IMG/VR virus record: IMGVR_UViG_646862326_000012
Location: 1-43,504 of that record
DNA: 43,504 nucleotides
Reading direction: 5' to 3' (one strand)
Source: a virus
Lineage: Duplodnaviria; Heunggongvirae; Uroviricota; Caudoviricetes
A program made the position numbers and the translations under genes. Shown in pieces: positions 13,156 to 36,300 of the stretch (position 1 is its first letter; each line of letters begins with the position of its first letter). Below the pieces are notes generated by a model. That model made no database searches. It was not told where the DNA came from and saw nothing but the letters and a program-made list of their open reading frames with translations.

Positions 13156-14151
13156 GTGACCGTGAGAGCACTACTGACCCCTGAAATTGCCCCGCGTATG
13201 GGGATCGTATTGTTCAGGCCCGGTTCAGAGCTGATGCCCCTGTTTATGCAGGGGCGTGTCCTGCTGGAGCCTGAGCCGGAACGTTATTCATCTTTCGCCA
13301 GTGGTGCCGTTCCGGCGGCATCACAACCGCTGGCGGATGATCCTGCCGTTCGGGCCGTGTTCCGCAATGAGGCAGTGATCCGTCGTGCTGGTGGCGTGGA
13401 ATGTCTTGAAAGCTGGTTACTTCGTGAAAAAGGCTGCCAGTGGCCTCATTCCGACTGGCACAGCGAGAACATGACAACAATGCGACACGCTCCGGGCGCA
13501 ATCCGTCTGTGCTGGCACTGCGATAACCAGCTGCGCGATCAGTTCACGGAACGGCTGGAATCAATGGCAACGGATAACTGTACCCGCTGGGTGTTGTCTG
13601 TTGTGCGTCGGGATCTCGGTTTTGATGACAGTCACGTTGTGACAATGCCGGAACTGTGCTGGTGGCTGATTCGTAATGACCTGGCGGATGCCTTACCGGA
13701 AAGTGCAGCCCGTAAGGCACTGAGATTACCGAAGCCTGTTGTGCCGTCTGTCACCCGGGAAAGTGACCTTGTGCCTTCGGTTCCCGCCACCAGCATCATC
13801 CAGAATAAAGCGAAAAAGGTGCTGGCGCTGAAAGTGGATCCGGAGTCGCCGGAGTCTTTTATGTTACGCCCAAAACGTCGCCGCTGGGTTAATGAAAAGT
13901 ACACGCGCTGGGTTAAGACACAGCCGTGTGCATGTTGTGGAAAGCCTGCTGATGATCCCCACCACCTGACAGGTCACGGTCAGGGTGGAATGGGAACAAA
14001 AGCGCATGACCTCTTTGTGTTGCCTTTGTGCAGAAAGCATCACGACGAGCTGCATGCGGATACCGTGGCATTTGAAGAGAAGTATGGCTCCCAGCTGGAG
14101 CTGATATTTCGTTTTATCGATCGTGCGCTGGCAATAGGCGTACTGGCGTAA
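13156..14151 (+). CDS. DUF968 family protein (Zn-binding/HNH-like C-terminus)
   Basis: 331 aa; apparent GTG start; C-terminal CxxC...HH cluster (QPCACCGKP...HHLTGHG...CRKHHDELH). Typical position between rusA and Q in lambdoid prophages. Confidence 0.65.
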   Translation: MTVRALLTPEIAPRMGIVLFRPGSELMPLFMQGRVLLEPEPERYSSFASGAVPAASQPLADDPAVRAVFRNEAVIRRAGGVECLESWLLREKGCQWPHSDWHSENMTTMRHAPGAIRLCWHCDNQLRDQFTERLESMATDNCTRWVLSVVRRDLGFDDSHVVTMPELCWWLIRNDLADALPESAARKALRLPKPVVPSVTRESDLVPSVPATSIIQNKAKKVLALKVDPESPESFMLRPKRRRWVNEKYTRWVKTQPCACCGKPADDPHHLTGHGQGGMGTKAHDLFVLPLCRKHHDELHADTVAFEEKYGSQLELIFRFIDRALAIGVLA

Positions 14152-14164
14152 GTGGAGAACGAGC

Positions 14165-14917
14165 ATGAACCTTGAATCCTTACCGAAATATTACTCCCCA
14201 AAATCTCCAAAATTGAGCGATGACGCACTGGCGACAGGCTCGGGTGGTTTAACAATTACGGATGTGATGGCTGCGCAGGGGATGGTGCAGTCGAAAGCAC
14301 CGCTTGGTTTTGCCTTATTCCTGGCAAAAGTTGGTGTTCAGGACCCTCAGTTTGCGATTGAAGGTCTGCTCAATTACGCGATGGCACTGGATAACCCGAC
14401 ATTGAACAAATTGAGTGAAGAAAACCGGTTACAGATCATCCCTTACCTTGTGAATTTTGCCTTTGCTGATTATTCCAGGTCTGCGGCAAGTAAGGCTCGC
14501 TGTGAGCATTGTGCAGGTACGGGATTTCATAATGTATTGCGCGAAGTGGTGAAACACTCCAGAAGCGGGGAGTCTGTTGTCAAGGAAGAGTGGGTGAAGG
14601 AACTATGTCAGCATTGTCATGGTAAGGGAGAAGTCAGCACAGCGTGCAGAGGGTGTAAGGGTAAAGGTATTGTACTGGATGAGAAAAGAACCCGGCTTCA
14701 TGGTGCGCCTGTTTATAAGATTTGTGGGCGTTGCAATGGAAACCGGTTTAGCCGTTTACCAACCACACTGGCGCGGCTTCATGTCCAGAAGCTGGTACCA
14801 GACCTGACGGATTATCAGTGGTACAAAGGATATGCAGATGTCATTGATAAACTGGTTACAAAGTGCTGGCAGGAAGAAGCATATGCAGAGATACAATTGA
14901 GAAAGGTGACAAGATAA
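14165..14917 (+). CDS. Late-gene antiterminator Q (Zn-finger type)
   Basis: 250 aa with repeated CxxCxGxG zinc-finger-like motifs. Located immediately upstream of a strong terminator and the lysis cassette. Confidence 0.75.
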   Translation: MNLESLPKYYSPKSPKLSDDALATGSGGLTITDVMAAQGMVQSKAPLGFALFLAKVGVQDPQFAIEGLLNYAMALDNPTLNKLSEENRLQIIPYLVNFAFADYSRSAASKARCEHCAGTGFHNVLREVVKHSRSGESVVKEEWVKELCQHCHGKGEVSTACRGCKGKGIVLDEKRTRLHGAPVYKICGRCNGNRFSRLPTTLARLHVQKLVPDLTDYQWYKGYADVIDKLVTKCWQEEAYAEIQLRKVTR

Positions 14918-15022
14918 ATGGTTTTCGCCGAAGATAACGACATGATGCTTGCATTTTTCAAAAAATATGGATAAGATTTTCCCAACGATGGGCTTTGTAT
15001 GTCTACCGTTGATAAGATTTAA

Positions 15023-15050
15023 GAACCCGCCGCTGAGCGGGTTTTTTTGT
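15023..15050 (+). terminator. Rho-independent terminator (tR'-like) downstream of Q
   Basis: ACCCGCCGCTGAGCGGGT hairpin followed by TTTTTTT. Confidence 0.65.
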
Positions 15051-15197
15051 GCCTGATGTCTCATGAAACTATGAAATGGATTGGTGCGTTAAACATTTTT
15101 TCTTATTATCTTTTAGATTTTGGAGAGATGGGTAACGTCTGTATTCCAGAAACTCGATGAATATTTAATAAATTAGTTTCAATGATGCTTCTAGGTT

Positions 15198-15623
15198 ATG
15201 AGTGTAATGAAAAAGGTATTAATAGCAGCGATAGGTTTTTGTTTAGTTGGTTGTGCAGGTATGAAATTACCTGAGTATTCGCAAGTTAAAGCAAGTCCGT
15301 ATTATACAGATTGCCGTGCGTTTGCCATGGATGTTTATAAAAATGATGGATACAGCAAAATTGCGAAAACCACTATCCTTAGCATGGATGATGTGAAGGC
15401 TAGATATATTGTGACAGGGTGTGTAGTTGCTATGGGGAAAAACACTGTAGAGGAAATTAAAGCTGATCTCTCTGCTAAAGGGAGTTCTTTTGGGCTTATC
15501 AGTGGTGCTTGTTCTAGTGCTGCATGTCGGGTTGATGTAGAGCAGCAAATGAACGCTTATATACTTGGTAGTTATTATGCTGCAAATAAAAAATTCCCGG
15601 ATAAAATGAAAGCAGAGTTTTAA
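15198..15623 (+). CDS. Lipoprotein moron (141 aa)
   Basis: Signal peptide with lipobox LVGC (Cys19). AT-rich. Flanked by two near-identical intrinsic terminators between Q and the tRNA cluster. Confidence 0.7.
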   Translation: MSVMKKVLIAAIGFCLVGCAGMKLPEYSQVKASPYYTDCRAFAMDVYKNDGYSKIAKTTILSMDDVKARYIVTGCVVAMGKNTVEEIKADLSAKGSSFGLISGACSSAACRVDVEQQMNAYILGSYYAANKKFPDKMKAEF

Positions 15624-15701
15624 GCAAACCTTGTTTTCGATTATATGCCGAAGATAAATGTTAGTAACGGCATAATAAGTAAATATATAGCTGTGATAGC
15701 A

Positions 15702-15726
15702 ACCCGCCACTGAGCGGGTTTTTTGT
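15702..15726 (+). terminator. Rho-independent terminator after the lipoprotein gene
   Basis: ACCCGCCACTGAGCGGGT hairpin plus T-run; near-duplicate of the terminator at 15023-15050. Confidence 0.65.
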
Positions 15727-15843
15727 ACCTGTAAACTTGGTGCAGTACAGTAAACACGCTGGTGGACAAGTGAAAAACAGCATTTAATCAGGCCTTCTGA
15801 AGATATTGCAGTATTAATTCCGTAACGTTATTATTCTGCGCGC

Positions 15844-15919
15844 GGCCCTTTAGCTCAGTGGTGAGAGCGAGCGACTCATAATCGCCAGGTCGCTGGTTCA
15901 AATCCAGCAAGGGCCACCA
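15844..15919 (+). tRNA. tRNA with CAU anticodon (Ile2/lysidine-type, ileX/ileZ-like; could be scored as Met)
   Basis: 76-nt cloverleaf folded by eye: acceptor GGCCCTT/AAGGGCC, anticodon loop CTCATAA, T-loop TTCAAAT, 3' CCA. Close to E. coli ileX as remembered. Confidence 0.8.
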
Positions 15920-15920
15920 A

Positions 15921-15990
15921 CTGCCACTAGCTCATCAGGAAGGAGCTTCAACCCTTTAAGTGCGAGGTTCGAGTCCCCGGTGGCGGTCCA
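15921..15990 (+). pseudogene. Degenerate tRNA-like element (possible tRNA-Arg remnant)
   Basis: Acceptor stem, D-arm, T-arm (GGTTCGAGTCC) and CCA are present, but the anticodon arm is too short to fold canonically. ACCCTTTAAGT resembles the argU anticodon region with deletions. Confidence 0.35.
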
Positions 15991-15992
15991 GT

Positions 15993-16068
<76 letters not shown>

Positions 16069-16071
16069 TAT

Positions 16072-16146
<75 letters not shown>

Positions 16147-16152
16147 GTTAGA

Positions 16153-16276
16153 GTCTTTCAGTCTGCGATGATGGGAAATCCCGGAGTGACTGAAAGACGT
16201 TTAAGTTATGAATGATCGCTTTTTTTGCAAAATTGCTGTGCAGAAATACTAACCTTCGGGCAGGCGATCATTCATA
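16153..16276 (+). other. Structured non-coding region with two long inverted repeats
   Basis: Inverted repeat 1: GTCTTTCAGTC (16153-16163) / GACTGAAAGAC (16188-16198). Inverted repeat 2: TATGAATGATCGC (16207-16219) / GCGATCATTCATA (16264-16276), with an internal T7 run. No ORF. Confidence 0.4.
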
Positions 16277-16437
16277 AGCACTCTGCTTTTATTCCGATTA
16301 ACTGTGGGTGGTTTGTTGGATAGAGTGCTTCCCTTACTGTATATATTGTTTCGCCCGTTTTTGCGGGTTTTTCTTTTCAAATCCCTTTCATTTCTCAGTG
16401 TAAAACTACGCCATCCGTTATTTGCGGAGGTGAGGCT

Positions 16438-16653
16438 ATGAAATCCATGGACAAAATTTCAACGGGCATTGCCTACGGCACCTCCGCAGGTAGTGCCGGG
16501 TACTGGTTTTTACAGTTGCTCGATAAAGTCACGCCCTCACAGTGGGCGGCAATAGGTGTGCTGGGTAGTCTGGTATTTGGCTTGCTGACGTATCTGACAA
16601 ACCTTTATTTCAAGATTAAAGAAGATAAGCGTAAGGCTGCGAGAGGTGAATAA
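16438..16653 (+). CDS. Class II holin (phage 21 S21-type)
   Basis: 71 aa; near-identical in pattern to S21 ([24 protein letters not shown]...), two TM segments, charged C-terminus. GGAGGTGAGG ribosome-binding site. Confidence 0.9.
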
Positions 16654-17150
16654 TGTCACCATCATTACGCAAGGCTGTTGCTGCTGCTATTGGTGGTGGG
16701 GCTGTTGCTATAGCGTCTGTGCTCATCACTGGTCCAAGTGGTGACGATGGTCTGGAAGGTGTCAGCTACATACCATACAAAGATATCGTTGGTGTATGGA
16801 CTGTATGTCACGGACACACCGGAAAAGATATCATTCCCGGTAAAACGTATACCGAAGCAGAATGCAAAGCCCTCCTGAATAAAGACCTTGCTACGGTCGC
16901 CAGACAAATTAACCCGTACATCAAAGCTGATATACCAGAAACAACACGCGGCGCTCTTTACTCGTTCGTTTACAACGTGGGCGCTGGCAATTTCAGAACA
17001 TCGACGCTTCTTCGCAAAATCAACCAGGGCGATATCAAAGGTGCATGTGATCAACTACGTCGCTGGACATATGCTGGCGGTAAGCAATGGAAAGGGCTGA
17101 TGACTCGCCGTGAGATTGAGCGTGAAGTCTGTTTGTGGGGGCAGCAATGA
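16653..17150 (+). CDS. SAR endolysin (R21-type lysozyme)
   Basis: 165 aa; N-terminal Gly/Ala-rich signal-anchor-release segment followed by a lysozyme-like domain. Overlaps the holin stop. Confidence 0.9.
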
Positions 17151-17584
17151 GCAGAGTAACCGCGATTATTTACGCTCTGGTTATCTGCATCATCGTCTGC
17201 CTGTCATGGGCTGTTAATCATTACCGTGATAACGCAATCGCCTACAAAGAGCAGCGCGATAAAGCCACATCCATCATCGCTGACATGCAGAAGCGTCAAC
17301 GTGATGTAGCAGAACTCGATGCCAGATATACAAAGGAGCTTGCTGATGCTAATGCGACTATCGAAAGTCTCCGTGCTGATGTTTCTGCTGGTCGTAAGCG
17401 CCTGCAAGTCTCCGCCACCTGTGCAAAGTCAACGACCGGAGCCAGCAGCATGGGCGATGGAGAAAGCCCAAGACTTACAGCAGATGCTGAACTCAATTAT
17501 TACCGTCTCCGAAGTGGAATAGACAGGATAACCGCGCAGGTTAACTACCTGCAGGAATACATCAGGACGCAATGCCTTCGATGA
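17147..17584 (+). CDS. Rz i-spanin
   Basis: ATGA overlap with the endolysin stop; N-terminal TM segment then coiled-coil-rich periplasmic domain. Confidence 0.8.
17319..17522 (+). CDS. Rz1 o-spanin (embedded in Rz, +1 frame)
   Basis: Lipobox VVSAC followed by a Pro-rich segment ([13 protein letters not shown]), fully inside Rz. True start is probably an internal Met (17346 or 17352). Confidence 0.65.
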
Positions 17585-33360: not shown

Positions 33361-36300
33361 ATGGGTAAAGGCAGCAGTAAGGGGCATACCCCGCGCGAAG
33401 CGAAGGACAACCTGAAGTCCACGCAGTTGCTGAGTGTGATCGATGCCATCAGCGAAGGGCCGGTTGAAGGTCCGGTGGATGGGTTAAAAAGCGTGCTGCT
33501 GAACAGTACGCCGGTGCTGGACAGTGAGGGGAATACCAATATCTCCGGTGTCACGGTGGTGTTCCGGGCAGGTGAGCAGGAGCAGACACCGCCGGAGGGG
33601 TTTGAATCCTCCGGTTCCGAGACGGTGCTGGGTACGGAAGTGAAATATGACACGCCGATCACCCGCACCATTACGTCGGCAAACATCGACCGACTGCGCT
33701 TTACCTTCGGTGTGCAGGCACTGGTGGAAACCACTTCAAAGGGTGACCGGAATCCGTCGGAAGTCCGCCTGCTGGTTCAGATACAGCGTAACGGTGGCTG
33801 GGTGACGGAAAAAGACATCACCATTAAGGGCAAAACCACCTCGCAGTATCTGGCCTCGGTGGTGGTGGATAACCTGCCGCCGCGCCCGTTTAATATCCGG
33901 ATGCGCAGGATGACGCCGGACAGCACCACAGACCAGCTGCAGAACAAAACGCTCTGGTCGTCATACACCGAAATCATCGATGTGAAACAGTGCTACCCGA
34001 ACACGGCACTGGTCGGCGTGCAGGTGGATTCGGAGCAGTTCGGCAGCCAGCAGGTGAGCCGTAATTATCATCTTCGCGGGCGCATTCTGCAGGTGCCGTC
34101 GAATTATAACCCGCAGACGCGGCAATACAGCGGTATCTGGGACGGAACGTTAAAACCGGCATACAGCAACAACATGGCCTGGTGTCTGTGGGATATGCTG
34201 ACCCACCCGCGCTACGGCATGGGGAAACGTCTTGGTGCGGCAGATGTGGATAAATGGGCGCTGTATGTCATCGGCCAGAATTGCGACCAGTCAGTGCCGG
34301 ACGGCTTTGGCGGCACGGAGCCGCGCATCACCTGTAATGCCTGGCTGACCACACAGCGCAAGGCGTGGGATGTGCTCAGTGATTTCTGCTCGGCGATGCG
34401 CTGTATGCCGGTATGGAACGGGCAGACGCTGACGTTCGTGCAGGACCGACCGTCGGATAAGGTGTGGACCTATAACCGCAGTAATGTGGTGATGCCGGAT
34501 GATGGCGCGCCGTTCCGCTACAGCTTCAGCGCCCTGAAGGACCGCCATAATGCCGTTGAGGTGAACTGGATTGACCCGGACAACGGCTGGGAGACGGCGA
34601 CAGAGCTTGTGGAGGACACGCAGGCCATTGCCCGTTACGGTCGTAACGTCACGAAGATGGATGCCTTTGGCTGTACCAGTCGGGGGCAGGCACACCGCGC
34701 CGGGCTGTGGCTGATTAAAACAGAACTGCTGGAAACGCAGACCGTGGACTTCAGCGTGGGTGCAGAAGGGCTTCGCCATGTACCGGGCGATGTCATTGAA
34801 ATCTGCGATGATGACTATGCGGGTATCAGCACCGGCGGGCGCGTGCTGGCGGTGAACAGCCAGACGCGGACACTGACGCTCGACCGTGAAATCACGCTGC
34901 CATCCTCCGGCACCACGCTGATAAGCCTGGTTGACGGACAGGGGAATCCGGTCAGCGTGGAGGTCCAGTCCGTCACCGACGGCGTGAAGGTAAAAGTGAG
35001 CCGGGTTCCTGATGGCGTTGCCGAGTACAGCGTGTGGGGGCTGAAGCTGCCGACGCTGCGCCAGCGCCTGTTCCGCTGCGTGAGTATCCGTGAGAATGAC
35101 GACGGCACGTATGCCATCACCGCTGTGCAGCATGTGCCGGAGAAAGAGGCCATCGTGGATAACGGGGCGCACTTTGACGGCGACCAGAGCGGCACGGTGA
35201 ATGGTGTCACGCCGCCAGCAGTGCAGCACCTGACCGCAGAAGTCACCGCAGACAGCGGGGAATACCAGGTGCTGGCGCGCTGGGATACGCCGAAGGTGGT
35301 GAAGGGTGTGAGCTTTATGCTTCGCCTGACCGTGGCAGCGGATGACGGCAGTGAGCGGCTGGTCAGCACGGCCCGGACGACGGAAACCACATACCGATTC
35401 ACGCAACTGGCGCTGGGAAACTACAGGCTGACAGTCCGGGCGGTAAATGCGTGGGGACAGCAGGGCGATCCGGCGTCGGTATCGTTCCGGATTGCCGCAC
35501 CGTCAGCGCCGTCGCGGATTGAGCTGACGCCGGGCTATTTTCAGATCACCGCCACGCCGCATCTTGCCGTTTATGATCCGACGGTACAGTTTGAGTTCTG
35601 GTTCTCGGAAAAGCGGATTGCGGATATCAGGCAGGTTGAAACCACAGCCCGCTATCTTGGCACGGCGCTGTACTGGATAGCTGCCAGTATCAATATCAGG
35701 CCGGGCCATGATTATTATTTTTACGTTCGCAGTGTGAACACCGTTGGCAAATCGGCATTCGTGGAGGCTGTCGGTCGGGCGAGCGATGATGCGGAAGGTT
35801 ACCTGGATTTTTTCAAAGGCCAGATAACTGAATCCCATCTCGGCAAGGAGCTGCTGGAAAAAGTCGAGCTGACGGAGGATAACGCCAGCAAACTGGAGGA
35901 GTTTTCGAAAGAGTGGAAAGACGCCAACGATAAATGGAATGCCATGTGGGGCGTCAAAATTGAGCAGACCGAAGACGGCAGGCATTATGTCGCGGGGCTT
36001 GGCCTCAGCATGGAGGATACGGAGGAAGGCAAACTGAGCCAGTTCCTGGTTGCCGCTAACCGTATCGCGTTTATTGATCCGTCTAATGGCAACACAAGAC
36101 CAATGTTTGTTGGTCAGGGCGATCAGATATTCATGAACGACGTGTTCCTGAAACGCCTGACGGCTCCGACCATTACCAGCGGCGGTAATCCTCCGGCATT
36201 TTCCCTGACACCGGACGGGCGGCTGACGGCGAAAAATGCCGATATCAGCGGTAGCGTGAATGCGAACTCCGGGACGCTCAACAACGTCACGATTAACGAG

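Follow-up and report, generated by a model that had tools for sequence, protein, structure and literature searches.

In E. coli, maturation of the glyW-cysT-leuZ tRNA operon frees 3'ETS-leuZ, an RNA that sponges RyhB and RybB. 3'ETS-leuZ is short and chromosomal. The tRNA gene region of phage T4 gives rise to RNAC and RNAD, two small stable RNAs whose roles are unknown (PMC3014915; PMC9697503). GOLLD and ROOL are structured RNAs of phages and prophages that often lie near tRNA islands and are possibly co-transcribed (PMC12286853; PMC5737381), and members of GOLLD are often longer than 800 nt (PMC12286853). In lambdoid prophages, PasA, PasC and PasD1 adjoin the holin-lysozyme operon, between Q and the holin gene, and all Pas sRNAs end in an intrinsic terminator. 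Phages HK022 and HK639 have put antiterminator RNAs, which are structured and lie upstream of terminators.

The window analysed here, the whole stretch of DNA at its full length of 43,504 nt, is a lambdoid prophage. Directly 3' of its tRNA array lies a structured element that, like 3'ETS-leuZ, would be RNA placed between the last tRNA of a polycistronic transcript and the terminator; in the window, and at most of 98 distinct family loci, it is found on the tRNA strand between these two features. In contrast to 3'ETS-leuZ, it is ~185 nt long plus a terminator, is prophage-borne and consists of three covarying hairpins, and the two have no sequence in common. T4 RNAC and RNAD, compared by description, resemble it as phage-encoded RNAs at tRNA genes, although T4 is virulent and the element is carried by temperate lambdoid phages, in their late leader. 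GOLLD and ROOL form multimeric cages, whereas the element, with its ~185 nt, occurs in Enterobacteriaceae only. PasA, PasC, PasD, STnc100, AgvB, AsxR and Esr41 occupy the same Q-to-holin slot of lambdoid prophages as the element, PasA on the opposite strand. The put RNAs share with it the position upstream of a terminator, and HK639 carries both; its putL-like RNA (34187-34312) belongs to the early left operon just past pL, whereas the element follows the tRNAs in the Q-controlled late region.

Rfam 15, which covers STnc100, AgvB, AsxR, Esr41, IsrK, GOLLD, ROOL, riboswitches and thermometers, returned for 16147-16437 at E ≤ 10 only a chance hit to CRISPR-DR62 on the - strand, with 24 bits against a gathering score of 45. 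In the element region a gathering score was reached by tRNA families only, with no hit to GOLLD or ROOL, and STnc100, AgvB, AsxR and Esr41 had no Rfam match at 14800-16800 of the window. At permissive E-values, a search of the window region and of the flanks in HK639, Fels-1 and E2348/69 left the element unmatched and returned tRNAs and STnc100 nearby. Comparison with the Pas sRNAs by blastn (word size 7, three E2348/69 loci) gave just 11-19-nt chance matches, and the covariance model found nothing better than E ~3 at the E2348/69 loci. Run with filters off, the model had no match at the putL-like RNA of HK639 (L399 9188-9313). A full-text literature search with three characteristic 14-15-mers, in their DNA and RNA forms, found no paper in the library searched that contains them. 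STnc100 (RF02076) copies lie beside the element in Fels-1 (L225 1897-2110, 2311-2433 and 3434-3652) and in HK639 (L001 2754-2959); the late leader of phages of this type is a hotspot of structured RNAs, and the window has no STnc100.

Setting and fold of the element

The element lies in the late region of the prophage, downstream of the antiterminator gene Q and directly upstream of the lysis cassette (Table 1), and its flanks are, as the preliminary description had stated, a tRNA-Gly and a holin gene, here tRNA-Gly(TCC) and a holin of P21 type. Among relatives, the holin 5' leader varies with the holin type. The 141-aa ORF 5' of the array has a lipoprotein-like N-terminus (MKKVLIAAIGFCLVGC) and the typical layout of a moron. 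The Chi octamer is found at the same place in many relatives despite differing surroundings.

Table 1. Features around the tRNA array and the structured RNA, in window positions.
Feature	Position	Strand	Remarks
DUF968 protein	13156-14151		Upstream of Q
Antiterminator Q	14165-14917		PF03589, E = 4e-53
Late promoter 3' of Q (pR')	14949-14954, 14972-14977		TTGCAT, 17 nt, TAAGAT; found by eye
Terminator of late promoter (tR')	~15024-15049		pR'/tR' stretch 14949-15049
141-aa ORF	15198-15623		No family (no Pfam match); between tR' and terminator 15701-15720
Second terminator	15701-15720		3' of 141-aa ORF
Chi octamer GCTGGTGG	15758-15765		Between moron terminator and tRNA promoter
Putative sigma-70 promoter of prophage tRNA operon	15806-15834	+	From sequence; TTGCAG 15806-15811, 17 nt, TATTAT 15829-15834; motif kept in relatives
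tRNA, anticodon CAT	15844-15919	+	ARAGORN: Met; PGAP on identical gene: tRNA-Ile
tRNA-Thr(TGT)	15993-16068	+	
tRNA-Gly(TCC)	16072-16146	+	Last of array; structured RNA begins at its 3' end
HP1	16153-16198	+	Arms 16153-16163 / 16188-16198, 11 nt, 100% complementary
HP2	16206-16277	+	Arms 16206-16219 / 16264-16277, 14 nt, 100% complementary, 44 nt between
HP3	16276-16330	+	Arms 16276-16284 / 16322-16330, 9 nt, 37 nt between
Intrinsic terminator	16353-16378	+	GCCCG..CGGGU hairpin (16353-16368) and T-run UUUUUCUUUU
Holin 5' leader	16381-16437	+	Shine-Dalgarno GGAGGTGAGG (~16426-16435); outside conserved RNA
Holin, phage P21-type	16438-16653	+	First lysis-cassette gene; Pfam PF04971, E = 8.7e-36
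Lysozyme	16653-17150		
Rz protein	17135-17584		

Between the hexamers of the putative tRNA promoter and the first tRNA lies the GC-rich stretch TCTGCGCGC. Many relatives carry TTGCAx, a 17-nt spacing, TATyAT and a GC-rich discriminator, 9 nt 5' of the first tRNA, and the spacer sequence differs between lineages while hexamers and spacing stay. Kept hexamers around a variable spacer are the pattern of a real sigma-70 promoter, and on this sequence evidence we regard the promoter as putatively active. It was not listed in a consensus promoter scan, because that scan demands at least 4/6 matches in each hexamer. Its place directly before the array suggests that the prophage tRNAs may be expressed in the lysogen independently of Q. 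Within the array, 15920-15992, between tRNA-CAT and tRNA-Thr, is a degenerate tRNA-like remnant that neither ARAGORN nor Rfam calls. Relatives have tRNA-Lys(TTT), Arg(TCT) or Phe in this slot, and odd calls there include a tRNA-Stop(TTA) in locus L103 and undetermined anticodons in L018, L021, L034 and L041. It is a hypervariable slot in which suppressor-like tRNAs may occur.

On the + strand, 16147-16380 folds into three hairpins, HP1, HP2 and HP3 (together ~185 nt), and a terminator. The minimum free energy of this RNA is -78.8 kcal/mol, compared with -54.9 +/- 4.2 for shuffles (z = -5.76); 0 of 200 shuffles folded as stably, and the - strand reaches just -57.7 kcal/mol. The preliminary description had proposed RNA folding and a covariance search across related phages as checks, and a fold far stabler than shuffles was found, as were covariation and conservation in related phages. 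An inverted-repeat search recovered both repeats that it had reported at their positions, including the 11-nt arms and 24-nt loop of HP1 (TGCGATGATGGGAAATCCCGGAGT, which includes GGGAAATCCC). HP1 starts 6 nt past the 3' end of tRNA-Gly, and its internal loop (UGCGAUGAU ... GGAGU), which surrounds a small GGG/CCC hairpin, is conserved; a K-turn or C/D-box-like motif in this loop was rejected for consensus mismatch. For HP2, the reported 44-nt span and T7 run (16220-16226, directly after the first arm, that is, inside HP2) were found again, and the arms had to be corrected from 13 to 14 nt. HP2 forms a three-way junction: the outer stem has 14 bp, loop AAAUUGCUG is closed by the inner stem UUUUUGCA/UGCAGAAA, and CC-UUCG-GG makes up a small hairpin. 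A promoter within the HP2 loop (TTGCAA ... TGTAAAAAT) was considered and rejected: its motifs lie too close together for a -35/-10 pair, TGCAGAAAT in the window is without the key A at position 2, and the outer stem that spans it covaries.

The third repeat and the terminator-like site with its T-run had been absent from the preliminary description. HP3 is a long irregular hairpin with an outer stem of 8-9 bp and the inner helices UCCGA/UUGGA and AACU/GGUU. Its 3' strand, GGGUGGUUUGUUGGAU, is nearly invariant in relatives, an invariance that is partly built in, as the family was fetched via exact HP2 or HP3 motifs; the HP2 loop of Fels-1 is a variant. Within the RNA, a GC-rich hairpin followed by a U-run is found at 16353-16378 only, and in the lysogen the transcript of the tRNA operon presumably ends at this terminator. 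A terminator scan of the window found no U-run directly after HP1, HP2 or HP3, indicating that these hairpins are not terminators themselves. A pairing of HP3 with the terminator, as in an antiterminator, looked plausible by eye in HK639; it is absent in the window and was rejected. From the end of HP3, it is ~95 nt to the Shine-Dalgarno sequence of the holin gene and 108 nt to its start codon. The region had been described as free of ORFs; it has mechanical ORFs of 31-45 aa only and no conserved one. As these ORFs are without counterpart in the HK639 homologue and the family alignments carry 1-2-nt indels, the element is not protein-coding.

Covariation, strand and modular distribution

Base-pairing was analysed in three alignments: HP2 and HP3 together (A2, 25 distinct sequences fetched through a motif inside HP2), HP1 (A3, 24 distinct sequences) and HP2 (A4, 30 sequences retrieved with a motif of HP3). 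The last served to re-test HP2, because A2 had been fetched through the HP2 motif. RNAalifold on A2 gave HP2 as a three-way junction and HP3 as a long irregular hairpin. In A2, 97.2% of cells were paired, compared with 32-50% for slid partners, and eight pairs showed compensatory change; A3 had 95.7% of cells paired (slid partners 38-59%) with four such pairs, and A4 94.2% (slid partners 26-54%), likewise with four. Cells changed on both sides numbered 46 in A2 against 16 +/- 4.5 in column shuffles, with 0 of 500 shuffles reaching 46; as the sequences are related, the shuffle control overstates significance, a weakness from which the independent stem versions and the slid-partner control are free. 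The outer stem of HP3 was 98.5% paired in A2, with four pairs changed on both sides, and it occurs in at least five versions, all of them pairing: CACUCUG/UAGAGUG, CAUCUCG/UGAGGUG, CAUCUCG/UGAGAUG, CACUCCG/UGGAGUG and CACCCCG/UGGGGUG. One HP1 pair in A3 is AU in 11 sequences, GU in 8 and GC in 3. Pair 24:40 of the HP2 inner stem in A4 is UA in 17, CG in 9 and UG in 3.

The HP2+HP3 alignment contains 132 G-U cells and 10 A-C cells, and reading it on the - strand lowers pairing to 85% versus 97%. A covariance model built from the alignment scored 157 bits on the + strand of HK639 and 66 bits on that of Fels-1, whereas the - strands scored 14 and 21 bits. Together, the excess of G-U over A-C and the model scores indicate, at the level of sequence, that the selected molecule is the + strand RNA, in the sense of the tRNAs and late genes, and not duplex DNA.

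The 291-base region matches 539 of 5426 complete E. coli genomes, always in the chromosome and mostly at 95-100% identity, and the carriers include ST131 as well as avian and urinary pathogenic E. coli. Four E. coli phages match at 97.6-99.3% identity, and phage HK639 at 76.6% over the hairpins. In HK639, the element again lies between Q and the lysis genes, with a truncated tRNA-Gly 5' and an annotated terminator 3' of it; there and in Salmonella phage Fels-1, which has HP1 and HP2 and lacks HP3, only a remnant of the 3' part of tRNA-Gly is left in front of the element. Exact-motif scans added well over 100 further phage contigs and also reached Shigella flexneri, Citrobacter sedlakii, Enterobacter hormaechei, Phytobacter ursingii and Yokenella regensburgei. 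In 40 E. coli records among the matches listed, nothing was annotated at the element, and the sampled records had no annotation of it other than, in two phage records, an ORF for a 'hypothetical protein' that is not conserved. One of these, on the minus strand of ON470583.1 (L003 2603-2734), covers HP2 and HP3 as well as the terminator; it lacks conservation and was probably miscalled.

At the 98 distinct family loci, the element is nearly always directly 3' of a tRNA array. Typical arrays consist of CAT; Lys, Arg or Phe; Thr(TGT); and Gly(TCC), and the last tRNA is usually Gly(TCC), with Glu, Val, Met or Lys as alternatives. No recognisable upstream tRNA was found at L005/L030, L064, L085/Fels-1 (where a moron is inserted), L121, L130 and L236/L248/L277, the last three of which have a protein-coding gene before the element. 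The linkage to tRNAs is strong and, given these few relatives, not obligatory. On the 3' side, an intrinsic terminator starts no more than 40 nt past HP3 in 65 of 93 distinct downstream contexts, and about a quarter of the contexts are without a terminator in the consensus-rule scan. Most relatives have one or two such terminators, which are non-homologous between lineages, and the holins encoded by the first ORF downstream are of several dissimilar types. Stx-type arrays (CAT/Met-Arg-Arg) have just one terminator ~12 nt past the last tRNA and no element, in line with the earlier remark that the region has more structure than a simple terminator needs. A covariance-model search of 99 phage loci fetched via the first tRNA gave no match other than the window's own copy. 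Together with the Stx-type arrays, this indicates that the element is an optional module of some arrays and is not needed for tRNA expression. In the Met-Lys-Thr-Gly arrays at L378, L329, L330, L326, L397 and L342, tRNA-Gly is followed by a different, unrelated trailer longer than 200 nt (GCAGAGGACG... or GCAAAACAAATG...), which may be another uncharacterised element.

The element is itself modular. HP1 is optional and missing where the last tRNA abuts HP2. In L257 and L236/L248/L277 the interior of HP2 is swapped for unrelated sequence while its outer stem and HP3 are kept, and Fels-1 is one of a few relatives without HP3. As any of HP1, the HP2 interior and HP3 may be lost or replaced, one rigid function for all 185 nt is doubtful. 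In one contig an IS element parts HP2 from HP3, and in Fels-1 the gene of a small secreted protein has a fragment of the 5' arm of HP2 on one side and a complete HP2 on the other. This inserted moron is ORF STM0906.1n (L225 2504-3200), and it also precedes HP2 in L085.

Candidate functions of the RNA

The element is real, conserved and supported by covariation, and of the kind of a non-coding RNA on a tRNA operon or a small RNA in a phage late leader. We lean towards the reading that the product of 16147-16380 is a structured non-coding RNA and constitutes the 3' trailer of the tRNA operon that the prophage itself carries. Transcription would start at the conserved sigma-70 promoter 9 nt 5' of the first tRNA, and polymerase would pass tRNA-CAT, tRNA-Thr and tRNA-Gly and then HP1, HP2 and HP3. 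In the lysogen, the transcript would be ~535 nt long and end at the terminator 16353-16378, at position 16378. Maturation of the tRNAs, which by analogy with host tRNA operons may involve cleavage by RNase E, would free an RNA of ~230 nt made up of the three hairpins and the terminator hairpin, presumably as a stable product. During lytic growth, Q-modified polymerase from pR' would read through all three terminators into the holin gene, and after induction the same RNA could be cut from the late transcript. Of the possibilities named in the preliminary description, a processed small RNA fits the anatomy best, given the position between the last tRNA of a promoter-bearing array and a terminator and the strand-specific covariation.

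Selection acts on the fold of the RNA and on its invariant stretches, namely the HP2 inner loop AAAUUGCUG, the HP3 strand GGGUGGUUUGUUGGAU and the internal loop of HP1. The likeliest mode of action is therefore that of a free RNA with a protein or a second RNA as its partner, which the fold and a few invariant stretches, single-stranded or G/U-rich, would contact; control of the adjacent holin gene is less likely. Within the window, no + strand site complementary to the HP3 strand or the HP2 loop was found beyond chance. A further, tentative proposal is that phages have a so far undescribed class of RNA dedicated to their tRNA arrays and that the element belongs to it; as a small equivalent, in enterobacteria, of T4 RNAC/RNAD or of GOLLD and ROOL, it would bind a host or phage factor through its invariant loops.

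The RNA could instead act in cis on the Q-antiterminated late transcript, where the hairpins would, after excision of the tRNAs, form the 5' terminus of the mRNA for lysis and structural genes, as protection against 5'-end-dependent decay or as a processing site. The location agrees with such a role: the element is on the late strand between pR'/tR' and the holin gene, always upstream of the lysis cassette and at a constant position regardless of holin type, and HP1 begins 6 nt past the tRNA 3' end. However, Stx-type arrays have a single terminator hairpin at that position, a mere stabiliser needs no nearly invariant loop and strand sequences, and the element has a terminator of its own 3' of it, so that we consider the cis role unlikely. 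Still less probable is that hairpins and terminator act as an insulator, slowing and stopping polymerase from the constitutive tRNA promoter so that the holin is not expressed in the lysogen. A stable-RNA-type promoter 600 nt 5' of a lethal lysis cassette might call for insulation, and most relatives have one or two terminators 3' of HP3; but HP1-HP3 have no U-tract after them, related arrays insulate with a single terminator, and neither the conserved loops nor covariation in 15-bp stems would be explained.

Control of the lysis genes by a riboswitch, thermosensor or attenuator, as the preliminary description had suggested with its thermosensor or riboregulator, seems very unlikely. Although attenuators classically show this order of structured leader, terminator and genes, the terminator and 5' leader are non-homologous among lineages that share HP2 and HP3, and the same RNA stands upstream of holins of unrelated types. 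In addition, no conserved alternative pairing with the terminator was seen by eye, the 108 nt from the hairpins to the holin start codon include the terminator, the Shine-Dalgarno sequence lies ~95 nt beyond HP3, and no Rfam model of a riboswitch or thermometer scores. Nor do we give much credence to a feature of the DNA, either a recombination linker or scar at a lambdoid module boundary, which had also been suggested, or a remnant of tRNA duplication. Some observations agree with it: junctions to unrelated sequence coincide with module edges, the Fels-1 moron sits between an HP2-arm fragment and a full HP2, IS insertions and swapped HP2 interiors occur, and varied tRNAs precede and varied holins follow the element. 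The conserved islands thus double as recombination junctions, but this leaves the covariation unexplained. A scar would not keep its pairing through compensatory and G-U changes, whereas compensatory substitutions are present in every helix and the 132:10 excess of G-U over A-C is specific to one strand, which indicates RNA. Both the riboswitch and the DNA-scar models conflict with the data.

This RNA, for which Rfam has no model, is present in about a tenth of complete E. coli genomes, and masking it as an RNA gene would stop spurious ORF calls there. The interval between Q and the holin gene of lambdoid prophages is already a source of regulators of host genes, namely the Pas sRNAs, AgvB, AsxR and STnc100, and the tRNA clusters of other phages hold enigmatic RNAs such as T4 RNAC/RNAD, GOLLD and ROOL. 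If the element is indeed an RNA dedicated to tRNA arrays, it might sponge host sRNAs or serve as a decoy or partner of enzymes that process or attack tRNAs, and it would then affect the physiology of the lysogen or the success of the phage. Being small and genetically tractable in E. coli phages such as HK639, the element would make the role of tRNA-linked phage RNAs directly testable.
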